Assembly: GCA_038063515.1 (NCBI GenBank)
Contig: JBBTUY010000004.1
Coordinates: 35,717-99,716 of the forward strand
Length of the DNA stretch: 64,000 bases
Direction: 5' to 3'
Source of the DNA: Patescibacteria group bacterium
Lineage (GTDB): Bacteria; Patescibacteriota; Minisyncoccia; Phycocordibacterales; UBA9973
This document shows positions 1,999 to 58,952 of the stretch, piece after piece. A program made the translations under genes and the position numbers. The notes below the pieces were generated by a model. It was not told the DNA's origin. It searched no databases and was given only the letters and a program-made list of their open reading frames with translations. Positions within the stretch are counted from its first letter, which is position 1, and each line of letters opens with the position of its first letter.

Positions 1999-4900
1999 TT
2001 ACTTCTTAGCTTTAAAACCTGTACCAGCTGGTATGAGTCTTCCGATGATAACATTTTCTTTTAGACCTCGAAGAGAATCTACTCCTCCCTTCACTGCATT
2101 TTCTATGAGCACTCTGTTTGTGTTTTGGAATGATGCAGCAGAAAGCCAGCTCTTTGTACGTAGTGAAACTTCAGTAATACCGAGTACTACGATCTCAGCC
2201 TTTGCTTCCTTGCCACCGAGTGTATTTACTCGAGAATTTTCTTCGATAAATGTAGTGTGCTCTACTATGTCTCCATTGGAGAAGTTAGTCTCACCTGCCT
2301 CCTTTATCTTTCTTCGTGAGAACATTTGACGAACGATGATCTCAGTGTGCTTTCTAGAAATAGACGCATTTTGAAGTTCGTACACTTTATTTATTTCACG
2401 AATGATGTATTTCTCCACGAGTTCTTTATTACCAAGCTTAAACATCTCTGTAATGTCTGCTGATCCGTCTGTCAAAAGCTGTCCCATTTTTACTTGGTCG
2501 CCTACTTTAACTATCGGCATTCTATGGAAAGACACAGCGTACTCTACTTCATGCTTGTCACCACTTGCCTTACCATCTGTAATATCAGATAAAACTTTTA
2601 TGATTTTTTCTTTATCATCTTTATTCTTAACTTCTATCACCTCACCGTCAGTCATAGATATAGTTGCAGGATTTTTAGGAACTCGTCTTTCAAATATTTC
2701 TTCAATACGTGGAAGACCTGTCGTGATGTCAGTACCCGCGACACCTCCAGCATGGAAAGTTCGAAGCGTAAGCTGTGTTCCCGGCTCACCAATAGCTTGT
2801 GCTGCGATGATACCTACTGCCTCACCGAGATCAACCAATTTGTTTCTTCCGAGATCTAGACCGTAACAGTTAACACAAAGACCGTGAACAGTTCTACATG
2901 TAAGTGGAGATCGTACGAAAACTTCCGTAAATCCTGCGTCGTCTATGACTTGACTGTCTTCTTTAGTTACGAGAAATCCTTTCTTGTAGGCCACATTGCC
3001 ATCTTTGTCTTTAAGGTCACCAGCAAGTATTCTTCCTCGAATATTCTTTGCAAGAGATATCTCAATTCCTGAAATATTTTCTGCTGTAATTATTTTTCCT
3101 TCTTTTGTCCCACAGTCTTCTTCGGTGATGACCACGTCTTGCGCAACGTCCACAAGTCTTCGTGTAAGGTATCCGGACTTTGCAGTGTTAAGAGCCGTAT
3201 CTGAGGCACCTTTTCTCGCACCATGAGTAGTGATGAAATATTCAATAGGAGACAAACCTTCTTGATAAGAAGATATGATTGGGAATTCAAGAGTTTTACC
3301 TTGGTTGTTTTGAATAAGACCTTTCATTCCTATCATCTGAGATAGAGATGTCATAGTACCTCTCGCTTTAGAAGTAAACAAGTCGTAAGTAGAACCATTT
3401 TTATCAAGTGTATTGGGAAGAACTTTTTCTAATTCCTTTTTAGCACTTGTCCAAATTTCTATAATTTTCTGATATTTTTCTGAGTTAGAAAGAAGTCCTT
3501 CACTCCACTGAGAAATAATTTCTTCTTCTAATTTTCTTCCTTTAGCAATGATTGCTGGCTTCTCAGGTGAAACTTTAACATTGTCCACACCCCATGTAGT
3601 ACCAGAAACTGTAGAGTACTTAAATCCGAATTCCTTTATCTTGTCGAGTATTGGAGGTGTATTGTCCACTCCATAACGCATGATGAGCTCGTCTAAAAGA
3701 GATGAAAGTCTCTCTTGAGTCATTTCATCATCAACATAAGGGAAATCACTTGGCAGGATGCTGTTAAAAAGAAGTTTACCTACAGAAGTATCAAACATAC
3801 CGCCATTAAATTTCGCGTAACGCAATGAATCTGTAGCGAGAACTTTAATCTTTGCACGTAGACCTACAATTCCATAGTCATGAGAACTTATAGCAATGTT
3901 TGGACTAGAGAAATATTTTCCTTCACCTGTTTCTCCATCCACTGATTTTGTCATCCAGTATGCACCGAGCACCATGTCCATGCGAGGGTTTACGATAGGC
4001 TCACCATTTTGTGGTTTTAATAGATTCTTGTTTGAAGCCATTAATTCCTTAGCTTCATTTTGTGCTTCTTCAAGAAGTGGCACATAGACTGCCATCTGGT
4101 CTCCATCGAAGTCAGCATTGAAAGCCTGACATACGAGTGGGTGTACTTGAATGGCATTACCTTCGATTAGTATTGGATTAAAAGCCTGAATACCAAGACG
4201 GTGCAAAGTAGGAGCGCGGTTTAATAGAACGTACTTACCTTCTATCACCTCTTCAAGCATTTCCCAAACTACCGCTTCACGCTCTTCTATCAATTTATTT
4301 GCTCCACGAATGTTGAATGCGAGCTCCGCTTGTAAAATCTTAGAAATAACAAATGGACGGAAAAGCTCAAGAGCCATGTGCTTTGGCAATCCACATTGAT
4401 TAAGTTTTAAATCAGGACCGACGACGATCACAGAACGTGCAGAATAGTCTACACGCTTACCGAGCAAATTCTGACGGAAAAGTCCTTGTTTTGATTTTAG
4501 GTTATCAGAGAGAGACTTAAGTGGACGCTTTTGTGACTGACTCATAGCAGCAGAATCATTTTGCTTTGCTATAGAGTTATCAATGAGTGCATCTACTGCC
4601 TCCTGAATGATTCTTTTCTCATTTCGGAGGATCACGTCTGGAGCATTTATTTCCTTTAATTTCTTTAGACGATTATTTCTGTTTATAACTCTACGATATA
4701 AGTCGTTAAGATCACTTGTGGCATGTCTTCCACCATCGAGTGCAACCATCGGACGAAGCACAGGAGGTATAACAGGTATAACAGTTAAAAACATCCATTC
4801 AGGACGAATCTTTGCATAGATCATCGCACGAATAAGAGAAAGTCTTTTTTGTAATTTATCTTTCTCGACGATGCTGGCCTTTTCTAGCATAGATTCTGTG

Positions 4901-5630: not shown

Positions 5631-8600
5631 TTAAGAGTTAGACTCTTTCTTTAGGTCTACGTCGAGTGCAAGACCTCGTAAATAATTTAAAAGTACATTG
5701 AATGATGCCGGGGAGTTAGGTGGTCTGATAGGTTCATTTTTGATAATAGAATCAAATGTTGCAGAACGTCCAGCTATGTCGTCAGACTTAATAGTGAGCA
5801 TTTCACGTAGTGTGTATGCTGCACCATAACCTTCGAGTGCCCAGACTTCCATTTCTCCAAATCTCTGTCCTCCACCTTGTGCTTTACCACCGAGAGGTTG
5901 CTGAGTGATGAGAGAGTAGGGACCAATAGAACGCATGTGAATCTTGTCTTCTACCATGTGGTGTAGCTTCAGCATATACATGTAACCCACAGCTACGTCT
6001 TGCTCAAATGCTTCACCTGTTCTTCCGTCAAATAATTTTAATTTTCCATTTTCTGGCAATCCAGCTTTTACTAATTCTTCTTTGATTTCTTCACGTGTAG
6101 CACCGAGGAATGGTGGCACTATTGCTTGGTAGCCGAGAGTATTTGCAGCCATACCGAGATGCATTTCAAGTATCTGACCCAAGTTCATACGAGAAGGCAC
6201 ACCAAGTGGTGAGAGTATGATGTCTATAGGTGTACCATCAGCAGTGTAAGGCATATCTTCTTCAGGCATGATACGAGATATAACACCCTTGTTTCCATGT
6301 CTTCCTGAAAGCTTGTCTCCAACTGAAATATTTCTGATCTGTGCAACTTCAATAACGATCTTCTTTATGATACCAGCTTCGAGTGTGTGACCAAGATCAC
6401 GAGAAAAGATTTTTACACCGATAATTCTTCCACGCTTTCCGTGCTCCATACGAAGTGATGTATCTTTCACATCACGGGCCTTTTCAGCAAAGATACTTCG
6501 AAGAAGTCTCTCTTCTGGAGTAAGCTCTGTCTCACCTTTTGGAGTAATTTTACCCACCAAGATATCATTTTCTCGTACTTCTGCACCTACACGGATGACA
6601 CCGTCTTCATCTAAGTCTTTAAGTTTGAGCTCACCTATGTTTGGAATGTCGCGAGTAGTTATCTCAGCGCCGAGTTTTGTATCACGAACAACACATGTAA
6701 ATTCTTCTAAGTACACTGAAGTAAATTTACTTTTCTTAACAAGTCTTTCAGAAACGATAATCGCATCTTCATATGTTGACCCAGACCATGACAAGAATGC
6801 TACGAAAATATTTTGACCTATTGATATCTGACCGTCCACAGTACTACTTGTATCTGCAAGTACGTCTCCCTTTTTCACCTTGTCTCCCACACTCACAGAT
6901 GGACGCTGATGAAATACTGAGAAGTTGTTGTTACGCATGAAATTTACAAGACTATAAGTCTTTTCAGAATTTTTATCACCCTTGGCCTCCTTGCCTTCTA
7001 CGACGACTTTCTTTGCATCCACATAAGATACAACTCCGTCTATTTCAGAAAGTATTAAACGTCCTCCGTCTCTTGATGCTAATTCTTCCACACCAGTTGC
7101 GACGAGTGGAGCTTCAGGAGATACGCAAGGTACCGCCTGCTTCTGCATGTTACTTCCCATGAGTGCTCTGTTTGCATCGTTATGTTCGAGGAATGGTATG
7201 AGAGATGTTGCAATAGAGAAAGCTTGGTTTGTAGCCACATCAATGAAATCAAGTTCCATTTTAGAAATAGTACCTGGCTCTGTTTTAAGTCTTGCTTCTA
7301 CTTTGTCTCCATTTATTTTTCCATCTTCATCATAGCTAATACCAGCGTGTGCAATGTTGTAGCCTTCTTCTTGAACTGCGTTTAAGTAAACAACTTCACC
7401 AGTAATAATACCTTTTTTAACTTTGATATAAGGAGTTTCGATAATTCCAAATTCATTTATTCTTGCGTATGTAGAAAGGTGCAAGATAAGTCCGATGTTT
7501 GGACCTTCTGGAGTATGTATAGGACAGACTCTACCGTAGTGTGAAGGATGCACGTCACGCACTTCGAGTCCTGCACGTTCACGAGTAAGACCGCCGGGTC
7601 CGAGCGCAGACAAAGTACGCAAATGCTCTATTTCGTTAAGCACATTTTCTTGCGCCATAAATTGTGAGAGCTGGTTTGTAGTGAAAAATTCTTTAATACG
7701 AGCTTGAAGTGGACGCTGGTTTATGATGTGTATAGGAAGAGCCATGTCTACATCAATGATGGACATACGGTCTTGGATATTTCTCTTTATCTGCATCATA
7801 CCTGTGCGAACTTTCTGCTGAAGAATTTCTCCCACGAAACGCACACGTCTCTGACCCAAGTGATCTATGTCGTCAGCGCGAGATCCTGGAGTATTGTTTA
7901 ATGTTATGATGTGAGTAATTACAGTCAATAAATCTTCAGGAGAGATTGTCTTTCTTGCAAGCTCTTCTTCATCCATAGATTTATTAAAACGCTGGTTAAA
8001 TCTAAAACGTCCCACAGAAGACAAGTCGTATCTGTCTTTACTAAATAGTGAATCGATAAACTCCTTTGCATTGTCAGCAGTAGCCATGTCTCCGTCTCTT
8101 AAACGCTTGTATATCTCTATATATGAATCATTTGCTGTTTTTGCTGAGTCTTTAAGGAGACACTGCTTAATAGTCGCCTTTATAAAATCAGGTGTTTCCT
8201 TACTATTAAATGCTGCTTCTATTTTTTCGTTTGTGTCGTATCCAAATACACGAAGGAGTGACATAGCACCAAATTTTCTCTTTTTGTCTATTCGTATGTA
8301 TATTGCACCATCAGCATCAGACTCTATTTCAATCCATACTCCACGAGCAGGGATTATCTTTGCGCCAAAATATTTACCCCCCTTTACTTCTAACTCTGTA
8401 AAGAAAACACCGAAAGAACGGGCGAGCTGTGGAACGATAACTCTCTCTACTCCGTTTATGATAAAAGTACCGTGTGAAGTCATGAGAGGAATTTCAGACA
8501 TGAAAATCTCCTGTTCCTTAACAGTACCTAAAATCTTGTTATTTAATTTTACACGAGCTTTGAGAAGACCTTGGTAAGACAATTTATTTATCTTAGCGTA

Positions 8601-8828
8601 ACTCTCATCAAACTTTGGCTCGTTTAGAGAAAAAGAAGTGAACTCTAGTTCAAACTTCTTTGTCGAATAATCACTAATAGGAGAAAACTCCTTAAAAACT
8701 TCACCGATGCCTGTTTCTACAAGCCACTTGAAGCTCTTAATCTGAGCTTCTATCAAATTTGGAAATTCGACCAATGGCTTCTTATACCTAGAGAAATGCT
8801 TCTTCGGCAGCTTTTTTTCTATTTGCAT
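5631..8828 (-). CDS. rpoB: DNA-directed RNA polymerase subunit beta
   Basis: 1065 aa; conserved beta-subunit blocks (GEMEVWALEGYGAAYTLREMLTIKSDD etc.); directly upstream of rpoC. Confidence 0.95.
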   Translation of the reverse strand: MQIEKKLPKKHFSRYKKPLVEFPNLIEAQIKSFKWLVETGIGEVFKEFSPISDYSTKKFELEFTSFSLNEPKFDESYAKINKLSYQGLLKARVKLNNKILGTVKEQEIFMSEIPLMTSHGTFIINGVERVIVPQLARSFGVFFTELEVKGGKYFGAKIIPARGVWIEIESDADGAIYIRIDKKRKFGAMSLLRVFGYDTNEKIEAAFNSKETPDFIKATIKQCLLKDSAKTANDSYIEIYKRLRDGDMATADNAKEFIDSLFSKDRYDLSSVGRFRFNQRFNKSMDEEELARKTISPEDLLTVITHIITLNNTPGSRADDIDHLGQRRVRFVGEILQQKVRTGMMQIKRNIQDRMSIIDVDMALPIHIINQRPLQARIKEFFTTNQLSQFMAQENVLNEIEHLRTLSALGPGGLTRERAGLEVRDVHPSHYGRVCPIHTPEGPNIGLILHLSTYARINEFGIIETPYIKVKKGIITGEVVYLNAVQEEGYNIAHAGISYDEDGKINGDKVEARLKTEPGTISKMELDFIDVATNQAFSIATSLIPFLEHNDANRALMGSNMQKQAVPCVSPEAPLVATGVEELASRDGGRLILSEIDGVVSYVDAKKVVVEGKEAKGDKNSEKTYSLVNFMRNNNFSVFHQRPSVSVGDKVKKGDVLADTSSTVDGQISIGQNIFVAFLSWSGSTYEDAIIVSERLVKKSKFTSVYLEEFTCVVRDTKLGAEITTRDIPNIGELKLKDLDEDGVIRVGAEVRENDILVGKITPKGETELTPEERLLRSIFAEKARDVKDTSLRMEHGKRGRIIGVKIFSRDLGHTLEAGIIKKIVIEVAQIRNISVGDKLSGRHGNKGVISRIMPEEDMPYTADGTPIDIILSPLGVPSRMNLGQILEMHLGMAANTLGYQAIVPPFLGATREEIKEELVKAGLPENGKLKLFDGRTGEAFEQDVAVGYMYMLKLHHMVEDKIHMRSIGPYSLITQQPLGGKAQGGGQRFGEMEVWALEGYGAAYTLREMLTIKSDDIAGRSATFDSIIKNEPIRPPNSPASFNVLLNYLRGLALDVDLKKESNS

Positions 8829-45251: not shown

Positions 45252-45284
45252 AAAAAAGCCACCCTTGAGGTGGCTTTTTTTTGT
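45251..45284. terminator. Bidirectional intrinsic terminator A8-gccacc-cttg-aggtggc-T8, downstream of pilin gene 45297..45833
   Basis: Perfect 7-bp GC stem flanked by 8-nt A and T runs. Confidence 0.75.
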
Positions 45285-45296
45285 AAGAATTAAATT

Positions 45297-51790: not shown

Positions 51791-52387
51791 TTAATTCTTT
51801 AACCAATAAGTCTTGATTTTAAAATCATGTTTGTATGTTGGAGTACCGGACTTTAAATCTATCTCCGAAGAAAAAGTTATTGATGATACATCTACTATGC
51901 GTAGATTGCTTTCAAGGTCTCGTGTAAAGTTTAGGAAATTTTCATATGTGCCAACAATAGAAAAGCTCAAATCCCACACACCGTATTCAGTAGAAACACC
52001 TGGTCCTGTAGCTCCTCCTGGGACCACTGATCCAGATCCTGGGGCTGTTGTTGTAGGGGCTGTTTTGATAGCATCATATTTCACATCTCTAAGAACCATG
52101 CCGTATGGTGCTGCAATCTTTTCTATTTCAAGAATGAGTCTGATGTTGTCGATACTGTCTGGAAGAAGCTTTTGTAGTTTTGCGAGGTCTTCAGTATTTA
52201 AGGCATTGTACTCAGCGGTTAATTTATCTCTTTGGTTTTCGAGTGCTTTAGAATTCTTTAAGGCCTCGTCATAAGACGCGACCTGACCACGAAGTTCTAC
52301 TACGTTAGTATAGAGAGGATTAGTAAATGCAAAAAATCCTGCAACTGCTATTCCTAATAAAATGATTGGTAAGATAAATCTAAGCAT
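51791..52387 (-). CDS. pilO: Type IV pilus inner-membrane alignment protein PilO
   Basis: N-terminal TM plus coiled coil and LLPDSIDNIRLILEIEKIA block. 198 aa. Confidence 0.65.
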   Translation of the reverse strand: MLRFILPIILLGIAVAGFFAFTNPLYTNVVELRGQVASYDEALKNSKALENQRDKLTAEYNALNTEDLAKLQKLLPDSIDNIRLILEIEKIAAPYGMVLRDVKYDAIKTAPTTTAPGSGSVVPGGATGPGVSTEYGVWDLSFSIVGTYENFLNFTRDLESNLRIVDVSSITFSSEIDLKSGTPTYKHDFKIKTYWLKN

Positions 52388-52389
52388 AA

Positions 52390-53031
52390 TTATGGATTTA
52401 ATTGAGGTGGCAAAATCCCTTCTACTGCTTGCTCCCTCTTTAGGAGATTAAGCTTATAATCTACAAATGATGGATCAACTGAGAAATCTAAATCGAAAAT
52501 AATGTTACCAGTCTCACTGAGTGTAAGGTTTGAAAAAACAGGTTCAATAAAATTCTTGTTCTTGCCGAAAAGATCTGACTGAAGTGCAAGATGGCTATAT
52601 CCCAAAGAAACACCAGACATCTTAACATTTACTCTGTCACCCAGATTGCCTCCGTAGGTATAGCTAAATTTAGTAAAACGAACACTCTTCATTGTGATAA
52701 GCTGAAGCTCTTCAAATATAGGACTAATGGCTATATGCTTGGTGAGGACTTGGTTTGCTGCGTGGAGCCTTCTGTCTAAAAGCCTGAGGCCTTCTATCTT
52801 TGTAGGCTCGAAACGATTCTTTGCTAGAGATAGGTCAGATTCCATTTTTGCAATACTTTTCAATTGGACTCCTTTATAAAAATAAAATGCTCCTGTGGTG
52901 ATGGCGACAGTGAGAACTATGAGAATACAAATCACGGTCAAAAAACCGATCGGCTTCGTGTATGTAGCAGAAGTATTTTCTCTAACCAAAGGTTTTTTAG
53001 GTATGAAAGATGTTTGAAAATTTTGTTCCAT
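52390..53031 (-). CDS. pilN: Type IV pilus inner-membrane alignment protein PilN
   Basis: Short cytoplasmic N-terminus, single TM, periplasmic domain. Adjacent to pilO with a 2-nt gap. Confidence 0.6.
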   Translation of the reverse strand: MEQNFQTSFIPKKPLVRENTSATYTKPIGFLTVICILIVLTVAITTGAFYFYKGVQLKSIAKMESDLSLAKNRFEPTKIEGLRLLDRRLHAANQVLTKHIAISPIFEELQLITMKSVRFTKFSYTYGGNLGDRVNVKMSGVSLGYSHLALQSDLFGKNKNFIEPVFSNLTLSETGNIIFDLDFSVDPSFVDYKLNLLKREQAVEGILPPQLNP

Positions 53032-53356
53032 TACTTTATATTGTATCTTTTATATTATATTACAAAAATATCTTTTAATGAAGCAAAGTGTGTATAACTT
53101 TATGCAAAGACAGAAAATAAATACAAGCTGGGAGTTTGGTAGATGAGAAAATAAAAAAGGCAGATAAGGGTATACACGTGTAACACCCTCATCTGCCCGA
53201 GCATTCAAATACAAGTATGCGGAATATTTTACTTATATTTGATATTTTTTTGCCAACAGGAAACTTAAAGCACTTTTGTCTAAAAAGTTGTAGTGTGAGA
53301 TTGAATAGTTGTGGAACATTTAGCGGACTTTTAGTGGTCCATAGAAAGGGGATAAA

Positions 53357-53513
53357 TATGAGAGAAAAAGGTTTGGCACAAGCGTGCACCCTGACGTTAG
53401 GGCTTGGGTTTGTTTTGCTGTTTCTTTCCTGGGTGGCGGCTGGAGCAGGAAACGAGATAGGTGGTTACGTCGCCATCATCTTCTTCGCATTAAGGGTGGC
53501 CGGATTTTGGTAG
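53357..53513 (+). CDS. Small (51 aa) two-TM hydrophobic protein in a locally GC-rich patch
   Basis: AAAGGGG SD 6 nt before the ATG. MREKGLAQACTLTLGLGFVLLFLSWVAAGAGNEIGGYVAIIFFALRVAGFW. The surrounding 140 nt are far more GC-rich than the flanks. Confidence 0.3.
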
Positions 53514-53543
53514 GTCATCAAAGCCACAAAAGTAAACTACCCC

Positions 53544-53570
53544 CACTAGCAAGAACGGTTCTTACTAGTG
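53544..53570. repeat. REP-like imperfect palindrome cactagcaagaacggttcttactagtg at the 3' end of the RAYT gene
   Basis: Same core (ctagcaagaacggttcttgctag) recurs at 54284..54312. Confidence 0.75.
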
Positions 53571-54257
53571 TTTGCTTTGATCTTCATCATTTTCAAAAGA
53601 AAGATAACTATCTATAAAATCTTCAAAATCATTGTCGTAAGAAAAATATTCCGGAAAAGCTTCTTTATTTAAAATATTACTTTCACATCTATCTATCCCT
53701 GTATAGTCAATGTAACTAGAATACTTATACTTTTTTAAAAAATCTTGCCAAGTATTTGGATTTTGTTTATCGATCAGTTCTTGCCATCCAGAAAATTGTA
53801 AATCCAATGGATTCAAAGCTATATATCCAAAGAGGTGTTTTAAATATATATCTTCAGGGATATGTTTTGATTTAAATAATCCTCCAAATAAAGATCCTGT
53901 TCTTTGATATTTTATATTAAAATACATTGAATAACCGACACCTAGTTTTCTCATAAATTTAGTAATTCCACCTTCAACCTCTTCTTTAAGAAGAATATGA
54001 AAATGATTCGGCATGAGACACCATGCACCAATAGACACAAGTGCATTACTCCTTTTGTAAGAAAATATTTCTTCATAACTTTTATGTAAAATATTTATAA
54101 GATTATCGAGCCTTATAGATTCATCGGAATTAGCCACATAAAGTAACATGATGAAACGATTGTAATCGTGAGTGGATTTAAAAATAACCCTCTTGTCTAT
54201 CCCCCTATTATAAATATGATAAAATTCTCCTGGAACAAAAATATCTTTTCTTAACAT
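53565..54257 (-). CDS. REP-associated tyrosine transposase (RAYT) / IS200-IS605-family Y1 HuH transposase
   Basis: HuH motif MPNHFHILL, catalytic Tyr in YIALNP, EFYHIYNRG N-terminal block. Start chosen at ATG 54257 (MLRKDIF...); the track ORF uses an upstream TTG. Confidence 0.75.
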   Translation of the reverse strand: MLRKDIFVPGEFYHIYNRGIDKRVIFKSTHDYNRFIMLLYVANSDESIRLDNLINILHKSYEEIFSYKRSNALVSIGAWCLMPNHFHILLKEEVEGGITKFMRKLGVGYSMYFNIKYQRTGSLFGGLFKSKHIPEDIYLKHLFGYIALNPLDLQFSGWQELIDKQNPNTWQDFLKKYKYSSYIDYTGIDRCESNILNKEAFPEYFSYDNDFEDFIDSYLSFENDEDQSKH

Positions 54258-54283
54258 AAGAAAGAGTTTACCAAATTCGGGCT

Positions 54284-54323
54284 CCTCTAGCAAGAACGGT
54301 TCTTGCTAGAGGATTGCTAGAGG
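54284..54323. repeat. REP-like palindrome cctctagcaagaacggttcttgctagagg plus a partial tandem copy (attgctagagg)
   Basis: 14-bp arms. Lies between the pilM stop and the RAYT start. Confidence 0.75.
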
Positions 54324-54330
54324 AAATATT

Positions 54331-55458
54331 TTATTGAAGTTTGCGCAGTGCTAGACCCATAGCGACAGCAAACTCGGGACCCATGGTATCAAGAACTTTC
54401 TGCAAGAATTCTGGAGTCTTAACTTTAGAAAATGGATGACCTATCTCTATTTCAGCTTGGAAATTATTTGCAGAAACTTCTTTGAGACCCTTCATAAGCG
54501 CCCCACCACCAGAAAATATAACCTTGCTTATTGTTCTGTTGTATTTTTTCTCATAACTTAGTAATACGTTGTTTGTTTCAGACATTATGTAGTCTATGTG
54601 AATCTTGATAACGTCAGCTAAGCTTTTTTCTGTAGGGCTACCGTATAGTCCAAACTCTTTCTTGATCTTCTCAGCTTCGGCAAATGACATGCTTAGAGAC
54701 TTGGATATTGATTCTGTTATATACGCTCCCCCTCTCTCTATAGAGTGAAAACTTTTCACCATGCCAAACTCCACAATAGAGAGCTTGGTGCGGGACGCAC
54801 CAAAATCAATAAGGAGAACTGGAGAAAGTTCATGCTCAAAGTTTGATCTGATAGAAGAGAAAATTTCAATTTCAAAAAAAGGAGACTCGATCTTGCACTC
54901 TGCTAAAATAGAACGGAACTTAGCCACTGCGTCATTTTGAGTAGCTACCACGAGCACATTCATCTTGTCTATTTTTACTTCCTCTACATGCTCTCTGTTT
55001 AATTCTTCGAAAGAAGCCTCTTTGTTTGGTAAAACGAAATAATCAAGGGAAACTTCTGCAATGGGCACAGGAATGTATTTCCTAGCTTCAATAGAAACTA
55101 TCGAAAGCATTTCGTCTGCTTTTACCTGAGATGGTAGCTGTATTGTAAATATTAAACTTGATTGTACGGGTATAGACAAAACGCCTGAATTAGAAGAGAC
55201 ACTAGACTGCTTTAATACTTCCTTTAATGCGTCGGCTATTTTCTCTACGGAAAGATTTGTAGTGGCACCTATATCAAGGTCAGCATACGGACCAAGCTCT
55301 ATGATACCGTAAGTTTCGAGTATAACTCTACCCCCCTTCTTCTTTATCTCAACGACTTTGATGGCTGAAGTTCCAATATCAATACCCACAGCACCATCTT
55401 CTGTGCCTTTTATCATTTTCTCTATATTCCCAAAGATTGTTTTCAGCGGATTATCCAT
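54331..55458 (-). CDS. pilM: Type IV pilus assembly ATPase-fold protein PilM (actin-like)
   Basis: GAVGIDIGTSAIKVVEI... actin/HSP70-fold N-terminus; 375 aa. Confidence 0.8.
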   Translation of the reverse strand: MDNPLKTIFGNIEKMIKGTEDGAVGIDIGTSAIKVVEIKKKGGRVILETYGIIELGPYADLDIGATTNLSVEKIADALKEVLKQSSVSSNSGVLSIPVQSSLIFTIQLPSQVKADEMLSIVSIEARKYIPVPIAEVSLDYFVLPNKEASFEELNREHVEEVKIDKMNVLVVATQNDAVAKFRSILAECKIESPFFEIEIFSSIRSNFEHELSPVLLIDFGASRTKLSIVEFGMVKSFHSIERGGAYITESISKSLSMSFAEAEKIKKEFGLYGSPTEKSLADVIKIHIDYIMSETNNVLLSYEKKYNRTISKVIFSGGGALMKGLKEVSANNFQAEIEIGHPFSKVKTPEFLQKVLDTMGPEFAVAMGLALRKLQ

Positions 55459-55495
55459 TTATACTAAAAATACTAATATAATAATTATACCACAT

Positions 55496-56170
55496 ATGGC
55501 CTTTTTGAACACTATATTAAATGGAGTCTTAAATTTAATCTTTCCCATGAAATGCATAGACTGTGGAATTTCAGGATCAAATTTTTGCAATACATGCATA
55601 GGTCAGGCTCCGATCTCAGACAGAGAAGTGTCAAGTTGGATATACCCGACATTCGACTATAGACACCCACCGGTCAAGAAAGCCTTGTGGCTAATAAAAT
55701 ACAAAAGCAAGAAGAGCTTAGTGAAAATATTTGCCGAAATAATGTATGACAGGATGATAGCAGAGCTTGCAGACTTGTCTCAATTAGAAAATTTTAATAA
55801 TTCCATCTTGATACCCATTCCCCTTTCAAAAAAAGGACACAGAGAGAGAGGATACAATCAAGCAGAATTACTTTGCGAAGAATTAATAGAGATAGATAAA
55901 AATACAAATTTTAAACTAGGAAAAAATATTCTAGTAAAGACAAAAGACACAGGGCACCAAGCTCACATTAAAAACAAAGGCGAAAGAATGAAGAATATCA
56001 TTGGTGCTTTTAGTATTAAAGATTTAGATAAAAATATAAATTTGATAAAAAATAAAAATATAATCCTAATAGATGACATAACCACTACAGGAGCTACGCT
56101 CGGTGAAGCAAAGAAAGTGCTAAAAAACGCTGGTGCAAGAAAAATAATAGCTTTTACTATAGCACATTGA
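55496..56170 (+). CDS. comF: ComF-family competence protein (ComFC-like phosphoribosyltransferase with an N-terminal zinc finger)
   Basis: CIDCGISGSNFCNTC zinc finger; PRTase motif IILIDDITTTGATLGEAKKVL. Start set at MAFLNTIL; divergent from pilM. Confidence 0.75.
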   Translation: MAFLNTILNGVLNLIFPMKCIDCGISGSNFCNTCIGQAPISDREVSSWIYPTFDYRHPPVKKALWLIKYKSKKSLVKIFAEIMYDRMIAELADLSQLENFNNSILIPIPLSKKGHRERGYNQAELLCEELIEIDKNTNFKLGKNILVKTKDTGHQAHIKNKGERMKNIIGAFSIKDLDKNINLIKNKNIILIDDITTTGATLGEAKKVLKNAGARKIIAFTIAH

Positions 56171-58689: not shown

Positions 58690-58781
58690 TGGCGGAGCCG
58701 GACGGATTCGAACCGTCGAGGGGTTTTGAAGCCCCTGCCTCTTTAGCAAAGAGGTACGTTAGACCACTCTGACACGGCTCC
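58690..58781 (-). tRNA. tRNA-Ser (anticodon GCT). Type II; CCA encoded; the D-arm pairs poorly.
   Basis: Manual fold of the reverse complement: acceptor GGAGCCG/CGGCTCC, anticodon stem CCTCT/AGAGG with loop TTGCTAA, long variable arm AGGGGCTTCAAAACCCCT, T-arm GACGG-TTCGAAT-CCGTC, G73, CCA. Confidence 0.65.
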
Positions 58782-58862: not shown

Positions 58863-58952
58863 GGACAGATGGGTGAGTGGCTTAAACCAGCGGTTTACTA
58901 AACCGCCGTCCCCTTAAAAGGACCGTGAGTTCGAATCTCACTCTGTCCGCCA
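58863..58952 (+). tRNA. Type II Ser-like tRNA gene with an atypical anticodon loop (UUACUAA, apparent anticodon ACU); CCA encoded
   Basis: Manual fold: acceptor GGACAGA/TCTGTCC, D-stem GGT/ACC, anticodon stem GCGGT/ACCGC, long variable arm, T-arm GTGAG-TTCGAAT-CTCAC, G73, CCA. A34 is not expected in a bacterial tRNA-Ser. Confidence 0.55.

Follow-up and report, generated by a model that had tools for sequence, protein, structure and literature searches.

To our knowledge, the repetitive extragenic palindromic (REP) sequences of bacteria and the REP-associated tyrosine transposases (RAYTs) have been characterized almost entirely in the Proteobacteria, and the cellular role of the RAYTs is an open question. 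Among the systems closest to the one described here is the REPtron of Escherichia coli, whose Y1/HUH protein TnpA_REP (RayT/YafM) is associated with REP sequences and BIMEs (PMC3479197, PMC8266576) and was crystallized with a bound REP hairpin (PDB 4ER8; PMC3479197). A second is subclass 2.1 of the TnpA_Y1 proteins (Quentin et al. 2018, PMC6006769), which is the same as Group 1 of the RAYTs (Bertels et al. 2017, PMC5581495) and is also compared with the TIRYT/TIRtron system (Di Nocera et al. 2013, PMC3733652). No REP-like hairpins were reported for this subclass by Quentin et al. (PMC6006769); the 16-mers that flank Group 1 genes have about 12 occurrences (PMC5581495), and some of the terminal inverted repeats (TIRs) of the TIRYT genes are self-complementary and form small repeat families (PMC3733652). 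Here, we analyze a stretch of 64,000 nt from a member of the Patescibacteria (contig JBBTUY010000004.1, positions 35,717 to 99,716; hereafter, the window), in which a Y1/HUH gene bracketed by two copies of a palindrome stands between the type IV pilus genes pilM and pilN. We propose that the segment 53546-54324 is a REPtron, that is, a RAYT-like Y1/HUH gene with its own short promoter and two hairpins that are recognized by its protein, and that it is an old resident of this place; we put the probability of this reading at about 0.7.

The first line of evidence is the regularity with which the same arrangement recurs in relatives. In more than 20 genome loci a hairpin is followed after 6-14 nt by the box TTGATATAAT, then after 7-9 nt by the ATG of the Y1 gene, and a second hairpin, oriented like the first, contains the stop codon of this gene or lies beside it. 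An independent metagenome sample had the same perfect palindrome on both sides of the Y1 gene in 51 of 68 loci, and altogether more than 70 loci display the layout of hairpin, -10 box, Y1 gene and hairpin on the stop codon. An 82%-identical homologue (L141; loci are cited by such numbers below) has the same hairpin 27 nt upstream of its ATG. The palindrome, moreover, co-varies with the lineage of the protein: it is GCAAGRAC-N-GTYCTTGC in the clade of at least 57% identity, whereas Y1 clades of 42-51% identity have other AAGG..CCTT palindromes instead. This co-variation between protein and palindrome is the strongest computational evidence that the hairpin would be recognized by the protein.

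The second line of evidence is the dispersal of the palindrome away from the gene. A scan for exact CTAGCNAGNACNGTNCTNGCTAG, the CTAGC..GCTAG palindrome, covered one genome per species (the source genome is not among these representatives) and returned 153 sites in 66 genomes, 64 of which are Patescibacteria. The largest number of exact sites in a single genome was 12 (JACPLQ01), and DASWWS01 had eight over two contigs totalling 640 kb. Only about 34 of the 153 sites are adjacent to a Y1 gene, so that orphan hairpins outnumber the gene-linked ones by about 3.5 to 1, and the majority are distant from every Y1 gene. The placement of the 153 sites is overwhelmingly extragenic (137 of 153, or about 90%: 115 intergenic and 22 overlapping the ends of open reading frames (ORFs), with 16 inside ORFs), and many copies lie a few nucleotides past stop codons. 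Pairs of sites from different parts of one genome agree in their A/G variant at position 9 in 177 of 197 cases, as against 99 +/- 8 when shuffled. Given such dispersal in related Patescibacteria genomes, the palindrome and its Y1 gene together are a REP/RAYT-like system.

The copies of the palindrome have additional regularities. The foot of the hairpin reads [A/C]CTAG...CTAG[T/G], with A..T at 80 and C..G at 30 of 151 sites. Locus-specific complementary flanks extend the stem by a mean of 2.1 bp (control 0.68), and extensions of at least 5 bp occur at 14.6% of the sites (control 0.7%). Short tandem repeats of the outer arm and its flank stand beside about one third of the isolated copies; the doubled TTGCTAGAGGA of the window is one example. 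Neither the stem extensions nor the partial-arm repeats are explained by a model of the TnpA_REP type, and they may record the joining reaction, hairpin slippage or selection for terminator function. In DASWWS01 (L127, L128, L136, L089) a second palindrome, TCAGAAGGACGGTCCTTCTGA, with the same centre and different outer arms, adjoins several of the CTAGCAAGGAC..GTCCTTGCTAG copies; this genome would thus have two repeat subfamilies. In two species the palindrome occupies the same place (L085 2260-2420, L063 about 440-620) within a region resembling a T-box leader, with the motif GGTGGTACCACGG downstream; Rfam made no call for this leader at gathering score.

The third line of evidence is the protein itself (NCBI MEK7564435.1). 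Its HUH motif, NHFH, comprises residues 84-87 (MPNHFHILL), and Tyr145 lies in GYIALNP, followed by N149 and P150. In an alignment with 32 homologues of 60-82% identity, N84, F86, H87, Y145 and N149 are invariant and H85 is nearly so; thus the catalytic tyrosine of the RAYT that the initial annotation had read in this ORF is indeed present. The C-terminal region is conserved and helical, and W158, Y177, S180, S181, R190, E192 and FP.YF are invariant in the same alignment. The family assignment was borne out in part: the protein passes Pfam Y1_Tnp (PF01797) with 29.6 bits, above the gathering cutoff of 23, and its three-dimensional fold is TnpA_REP-like, clearly closer to TnpA_REP than to the TnpA of IS608 or ISDra2, but it fails the NCBIfam model of the RAYT equivalog. 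The link to TnpA_REP came solely from the fold comparison and not from the sequence searches of the PDB. Taken together, these data support the reading of the ORF as a Y1/HUH protein of class 2 (Y-x3-NP) that has a fold like that of TnpA_REP and is bracketed by its cognate palindrome. The protein matches more than 2,600 others in the databases. The 120 best matches, at 61-82% identity and with lengths near 226 aa, belong to Nomurabacteria, Paceibacterota and other related Patescibacteria, and JGI had already given a few of them the label 'RayT'. Pfam found no domain beyond Y1_Tnp, no pilus-related domain and no C-terminal match of the helix-turn-helix (HTH) type. No relative of the Y1 protein was found in the viral contigs of IMG/VR, and therefore a phage vector is not indicated.

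The window belongs to a population from the Hainich groundwater well H41, in which 11 near-identical contigs have the same arrangement. On the minus strand the order is pilM, the 230-aa Y1 ORF, a gap of 533 nt, a pilN-like ORF, pilO, a 137-aa ORF and pilB, and the distance from pilM to the pilN-like gene is 1298 nt. The features are as follows.

54331-55458, minus strand: pilM, the upstream neighbour (Pfam PilM_2, 3.7e-42)
54283-54324: 5' REP-like hairpin block, with a 23-nt core at 54287-54309 and a stem that reaches 31 nt at 54283-54313
54265-54273, minus strand: TGGTAAACT, degenerate counterpart of the TTGATATAAT (-10) box, from the comparison of more than 20 loci and the sequence
53565-54257, minus strand: Y1/HUH (RAYT-like) gene, 230 aa, with its ATG at 54257 and its stop codon at 53565-53567
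53546-53568: 3' REP-like hairpin with one mismatch, which holds the Y1 stop codon; the position is also occupied in relatives
53110-53545: lineage-specific spacer, 435 nt between the 3' hairpin and the probable pilN promoter block, including the GC-rich patch (about 53350-53500)
53358-53513, plus strand: 51-aa hydrophobic orphan ORF ('mini-gene'), of unproven status
53148-53197, minus strand: intrinsic-terminator-like hairpin at 53159-53197, then TTTTTTATTTT at 53148-53158 (single-stranded DNA fold -11.6 kcal/mol, z -6.3)
53044-53101, minus strand: conserved pilN upstream block GTTATACACA..TTTGCTTC..TATAAT, with the -10 TATAAT at 53054-53059; conserved with L023, L103 and L014
52390-53031, minus strand: pilN-like gene, by synteny (pilO and pilB); 49-67% identical to the genes that occupy this position in relatives

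The stop codon of pilM lies 6 nt short of the repeat block. The copy of the palindrome at 54287-54309 is an exact CTAGCAAGAACGGTTCTTGCTAG, and that at 53546-53568 has a single mismatch, which would be a G.U pair in a transcript of the Y1 sense. The 5' copy can be extended to TCCTCTAGCAAGAAC-G-GTTCTTGCTAGAGGA; after it comes a tandem partial-arm repeat, two 11-nt units of TTGCTAGAGGA, at 54303-54324. Folded as single-stranded DNA, the 5' and 3' copies reach -14.5 (z -6.3) and -8.5 kcal/mol (z -3.6), respectively. By its position TGGTAAACT would be the -10 element of the Y1 promoter; an alternative start of the gene, TTG at 54293, would give a protein of 242 aa. The pilN-like ORF, which opens the downstream unit pilN-pilO-(137 aa)-pilB, has no family match in Pfam or NCBIfam and owes its name to synteny. 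All the elements that the initial annotation had listed here (the Y1 gene, the two palindromes, the GC-rich patch and the plus-strand ORF with its Shine-Dalgarno sequence) were found again in the sequence. The Y1 gene is AT-richer than its neighbours: its GC content at third codon positions (GC3) is 0.20, as against 0.29-0.35 in pilM, pilN, pilO and pilB. An exact 15-nt repeat (53062-53076 and 54235-54249) was considered as a target duplication and is treated as a chance match, because one copy belongs to constrained Y1 coding sequence and the other to the conserved pilN promoter.

Several of the related loci have peculiarities of their own. At L041 there are two Y1 genes (847-1518 and 3109-3780), 2.3 kb apart, with identical 3' flanks and equal identity to the query; the unit was recently duplicated in tandem here, and a gene with an NYN domain separates the two copies. 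L168, L172 and L219 each have, less than 5 kb from the first Y1 gene, another that is only distantly related (41-45% identity to the query), and in this they recall proteobacterial genomes in which several RAYTs coexist with separate sets of repeats. At L017 an imperfect direct repeat of about 55 nt (7887-7943 and 8720-8778) brackets the hairpin-Y1-hairpin unit; it spans the T-run of the pilD terminator, a promoter (TGATATAAT) and 17 nt from the start of pilD, with TTAC at the end of each copy, and it could be either a long target duplication or the trace of an integration by homologous recombination. Small ORFs rich in lysine and glutamate lie just upstream of the 5' hairpin at L012 (7515-7850, 111 aa) and L014 (7660-7896, 72-78 aa); they were considered as the cargo of a larger element and rejected, their proteins not being homologous and their DNA being unalignable. 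Some of the metagenome palindromes are inverted doublets reminiscent of REPINs. A search of seven related loci with Rfam returned one tRNA and nothing else.

The sequence that we read from this genome amounts to 84 kb, the window plus 10 kb at each end. Within the 64 kb of the window there is no further copy of the palindrome within 3 mismatches (chance expectation 0.00-0.02). A third copy is a decayed orphan about 15 kb beyond the left end of the window (L137 16950-16972, 19 of 23 positions identical); it is intergenic and followed by a typical partial-arm repeat, and it is no longer foldable. The 84 kb contain one Y1 gene, and each sampled block of the related genomes likewise has one Y1 locus, save for the tandem duplicate at L041. 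The expectation of additional copies of the REP core in the genome has thus been borne out weakly here, by this one orphan, and clearly in the relatives.

The position of the unit relative to the pilus genes bears on its age. A Y1 gene also stands between pilM and pilN in L014/L076, L103 and L143, where the Y1 proteins are 73-76% and the PilM proteins 61-72% identical to those of the window. At L017 pilM and pilN are 35 nt apart with no Y1 gene between them, and there is none at this junction in L023, the closest relative by PilB (79%) and PilN (67%), whose spacer of about 330 nt holds, besides a promoter and a terminator, a hydrophobic ORF of 21 aa. The Y1 proteins of L012 (at rplE|rpsN) and of L014 and L103 (both at pilM|pilN) are mutually 80% identical; proteins this similar stand at different loci, and therefore the hairpin-gene-hairpin unit has moved on this timescale. 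At pilM|pilN it is nonetheless old: four lineages carry it there, and close relatives carry it elsewhere. At pilin|pilD the window carries a bidirectional terminator of the classical type, AAAAAAAAGCCACCTCAAGGGTGGCTTTTTTTT (45255-45290, minus strand); at this junction L023 has a solo palindrome after a pilin gene, and L017, L144 and L171 have a whole Y1 unit.

These comparisons alter the view that was first taken of the locus. A recent insertion that polarizes a pilus operon, as the initial annotation had supposed, is not supported: the same gene is found at pilM|pilN in three other lineages, a strong terminator follows on the minus strand, and the promoter of pilN is conserved. The block at 53044-53101, common to the window, L103, L014 and L023, the last of which lacks a Y1 gene at this junction, is likely the pilN promoter, and L023 has a terminator with a T-run ahead of it, analogous to that at 53148-53197. 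Given this terminator and the conserved promoter, polarity of the insert is unlikely; pilM (with Y1) and pilN-pilB would be separate transcription units. The practical message for the window is that of a pilus cluster which is not disrupted. It had also been considered that sister genomes might carry the same gene as a conserved component of the pilus. Literally, some do carry it between pilM and pilN, but it does not keep the fixed place of such a component, being absent from this junction in L017 and L023, and its presence there does not make it one, because close homologues occur also in a ribosomal-protein operon (at 73-80% identity) and in many other places.

By analogy with the biochemistry of TnpA_REP and IS608, on which our proposed mechanism is modelled (PMC3479197, PMC8266576, PMC6006769), the Y1 protein would bind a hairpin extruded in single-stranded DNA, for example at the replication fork. 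The NHFH motif would hold a metal ion and Tyr145 would cut near the foot of the hairpin, forming a 5'-phosphotyrosine link that is resolved by rejoining to another end. In this way single hairpins may occasionally have been copied or moved to other intergenic sites and the whole unit, more rarely, moved. In the lineage of the window the unit would have resided in the pilM|pilN spacer for a long time and been passed on vertically. Lying upstream of the terminator and the pilN promoter, it would leave the expression of pilN, pilO and pilB uninterrupted, and the adjacent 435-nt GC-rich spacer would be a separate, lineage-specific piece of DNA.

A number of facts weigh against reading the segment as a REPtron. 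We know of no member of this Y1 family for which a biochemical activity is known. The window's own -10 box is degenerate, and the 84 kb contain just the two flanking copies of the palindrome and one decayed orphan; therefore an active spreading of REP sequences is not demonstrated here. Even in the relatives, at most 12 exact copies per genome were counted, far below the classical REP families. The protein scores 29.7 bits against the NCBIfam equivalog NF047646 (REP_Tyr_transpos), whose cutoff is 80, and is therefore no equivalog of the proteobacterial RAYTs; searches of the PDB with the single protein and with the profile of 32 sequences gave no match at E <= 10. The foot of the hairpin, finally, is CTAG and not the canonical 5' GT[AG]G (definition in PMC6006769).

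The same observations could be read as an autonomous insertion sequence of the IS200/IS605 type, selfish rather than domesticated, in which the hairpins are the left and right ends and the solo hairpins decay products or elements resembling MITEs. Such an element would have hairpins that tightly bracket a Y1 gene with an internal promoter, as is the case here, and a location that differs among close relatives; the tandem duplicate at L041 and the direct repeat of about 55 nt, ending in TTAC, around the unit of L017 are also in its favour, and the co-orientation with the upstream gene in all 21 loci is as expected of strand-specific insertion into single-stranded DNA. We nevertheless hold it to be unlikely, given a tyrosine motif that is Y-x3-NP and not the Y-x3-Q of IS200 (PMC6006769 Table 1), a fold clearly nearer to TnpA_REP than to the TnpA of IS608 or ISDra2, and two ends that are the same perfect palindrome instead of distinct imperfect hairpins. 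The excess of orphan over gene-linked hairpins (about 3.5 to 1) also speaks against it, as do the usual single copy per locus (a near-identical multi-copy pattern was not seen in the sampled sequence), the retention of the gene at one site across lineages with PilM only 61-72% identical, and the lack of a relative in viral contigs. At the other extreme, the palindromes might be ordinary terminators or an operator of the host that flank the Y1 gene by coincidence and owe it nothing of their spread. The many copies just past stop codons, with A-runs, T-runs and locus-specific stem extensions, do look like terminators, and the orthologous pilin|pilD junction is a classical terminator in the window and a solo palindrome in L023. 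Coincidence would, however, have to account for palindromes on both sides of the gene at fixed distances in more than 70 loci, for their co-variation with the protein lineage, for the homogenization of their variants within genomes and for the partial-arm 'stutter' repeats at about one third of the isolated copies; moreover, the nearest structural relative was crystallized on a REP hairpin. We consider this explanation highly improbable.

The placement of the unit suggests a further alternative, namely that the Y1 protein is functionally tied to the type IV pilus/DNA-uptake cluster, where it would process incoming single-stranded DNA or drive the rearrangement or regulation of pilin loci, and has been kept there for co-regulation. 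Among Y1 genes of at least 55% identity to that of the window, 7 of 20 from genome loci and 7 of 18 from independent metagenome loci (about 37%) lie in pilus clusters, at no fewer than five intergenic positions (pilM|pilN, pilin|pilD, pilB|pilC, ahead of pilB and, on the opposite strand, pilD|pilin), although a cluster of about 12 kb would make up about 2% of a genome assumed to be 0.6-1 Mb in size. The orphan hairpins have no comparable enrichment (5 of 113 have a pilus gene within 1 kb), and a simple target preference therefore fails to explain the pattern. On the other hand, about 63% of the loci are elsewhere, for example in the ribosomal operon or beside MurJ, KsgA or a DNA methylase; the distant Y1 subfamily is in a pilus cluster at 0 of 24 loci; the closest relative, L023, has no Y1 gene in the part of its cluster that was read (pilM to the pilin genes); and the protein has no pilus-related domain. 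An ancestral position with local hopping and vertical inheritance would yield the same pattern, and we give the functional tie little credence. It is equally doubtful that the Y1 gene and its hairpins are a domesticated module coupled to the pilus/DNA-uptake cluster of Parcubacteria and not just a resident selfish element; such a coupling, if true, would account for the presence of about 37% of the clade's genes in pilus clusters at several positions, unlike the solo hairpins.

Beside the proposed REPtron, the spacer at 53110-53545 calls for an explanation of its own. Over about 53350-53500 its GC content is 0.51-0.53, as against 0.37 for the window, and it has no blastn or tblastx relative in all the fetched loci. 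It could be that this patch encodes a real 51-aa membrane peptide of two helices, for instance a type I toxin-like or accessory peptide, horizontally acquired and transcribed convergently to pilM and Y1. The ORF is open, with two hydrophobic stretches and a good, correctly spaced Shine-Dalgarno sequence (AAAGGGG, 7-8 nt ahead of the ATG); the first codon position is enriched in G (0.43), and frame 0 of the plus strand is the only one open. A structured RNA behind the patch was dropped from consideration, the fold z being 0 to +1.35 on both strands, and this alternative cause of the GC content is thus lacking. A small hydrophobic ORF is found in the L023 spacer as well (21 aa, other strand). 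Nevertheless, a search of 1.84 billion representative proteins with the 51-aa ORF returned only itself, tblastn found no relative in metagenome contigs, and Pfam, NCBIfam and Rfam had no match; none of the listed contigs of this population has the ORF among its called genes, all sister loci lack it, the closest relatives included, and its GC3 is 0.53 where host genes have 0.20-0.37. A real peptide is therefore a tentative proposal that we rather doubt, and the GC-rich mini-gene of the initial annotation has found no support. The ORF is probably not a conserved gene, and the best description of the patch is that of a spacer specific to this lineage, foreign in composition, in which an orphan ORF is unproven. 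The corresponding region of L023 (7690-7950, minus strand) contains a promoter (TTGACT-17-TATAAT), a GC-rich patch in which the 21-aa ORF MDKSFTGALALVLILLAIASL lies behind a good Shine-Dalgarno sequence, and the terminator; its ORF is analogous but unrelated to that of the window, and on the opposite strand.

Two observations concern the surroundings. An Rfam scan of 52000-56000 (E <= 1) gave as its sole result a sub-threshold match to BsrC within pilM. At 58863-58952 (plus strand) ARAGORN called a tRNA-Ser with anticodon ACT, which is unusual in bacteria; it is divergent from the tRNA-Ser(GCT) at 58690-58781.

The genomes of Patescibacteria are tiny and streamlined, and the persistence of repeats in them is not expected. 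That RAYT/REP systems are best known from the Proteobacteria had been remarked from the outset; here, a large family of more than 2,600 database matches displays the full logic of a REPtron in the Patescibacteria relatives of the window. Searches of the literature found nothing relevant on RAYT or REP systems in Patescibacteria, the Candidate Phyla Radiation (CPR) or Parcubacteria, an absence in the searchable literature that is not proof, and the hairpin-repeat system of the Patescibacteria is apparently undescribed. It is a minimal, low-copy version, with no more than 12 exact hairpins per genome, perfect palindromes and a clean co-variation of protein and hairpin, and its protein resembles subclass 2.1, a type for which a hairpin partner was previously unreported. 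The family thus offers a compact natural data set on hairpin recognition by Y1 proteins. Its terminator-like copies raise the question of whether the hairpins are used as terminators in AT-rich genomes, and the recurrent placement of the Y1 gene in pilus clusters is an unexplained but testable pattern.

How, then, does the system compare with those already known? With IS200, IS608 and ISDra2 it shares the fold (HUH/Y1), hairpins in subterminal position, the small size of the unit (about 780 bp), a strand or orientation bias, and evidence that the whole unit relocates. It differs from the IS200/IS605 elements in its protein (230 aa with YIALNP, as against the core-only IS200 protein of about 150 aa with Y-x3-Q; PMC6006769 Table 1), in ends that are identical perfect palindromes, in a gene that is single-copy in the sampled sequence and has no tnpB, and in solo hairpins that far outnumber the genes. 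With the TnpA_REP system of E. coli it has in common the Y-x3-NP nuclease of the Y1/HUH type, cognate flanking hairpins and, in the related genomes sampled, extragenic dispersal, homogenization within genomes and a low copy number of the gene. Similarity to 4ER8 is, however, undetectable by pairwise or profile comparison of sequence, and the NCBIfam equivalog assignment fails; the window family has an additional conserved C-terminal region of about 80 aa, and its hosts are Patescibacteria, not Proteobacteria. Its hairpin is a perfect palindrome of 23-31 nt with a CTAG foot, whereas the REP of E. coli is imperfect with 5' GTAG; exact copies number at most 12 per genome here and hundreds there; and its flanking copies have the same orientation and fixed distances, one of them on the stop codon.

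In its protein the system resembles subclass 2.1, judged against the published motif tables and not the authors' hidden Markov models: the signatures NH[YF]H and Y[IV]xLNP (here NHFH and YIALNP), a length of about 230-240 aa, a C-terminal extension and, in the sequence sampled, a low copy number are shared, and with Group 1 and the TIRYT genes the system also shares the modest genomic abundance of the flanking repeats. The window protein departs from this subclass in having no C-terminal Pfam match of the HTH type (Bac_DnaA_C, HTH_23, HTH_28) and in reading LFGG at the position of the published 'W' motif, and its family lacks the GGGGWSAS motif of the TIRs of the TIRYT genes. It departs from subclass 2.1 also in that nearly every gene of the window family has clear hairpins beside it.

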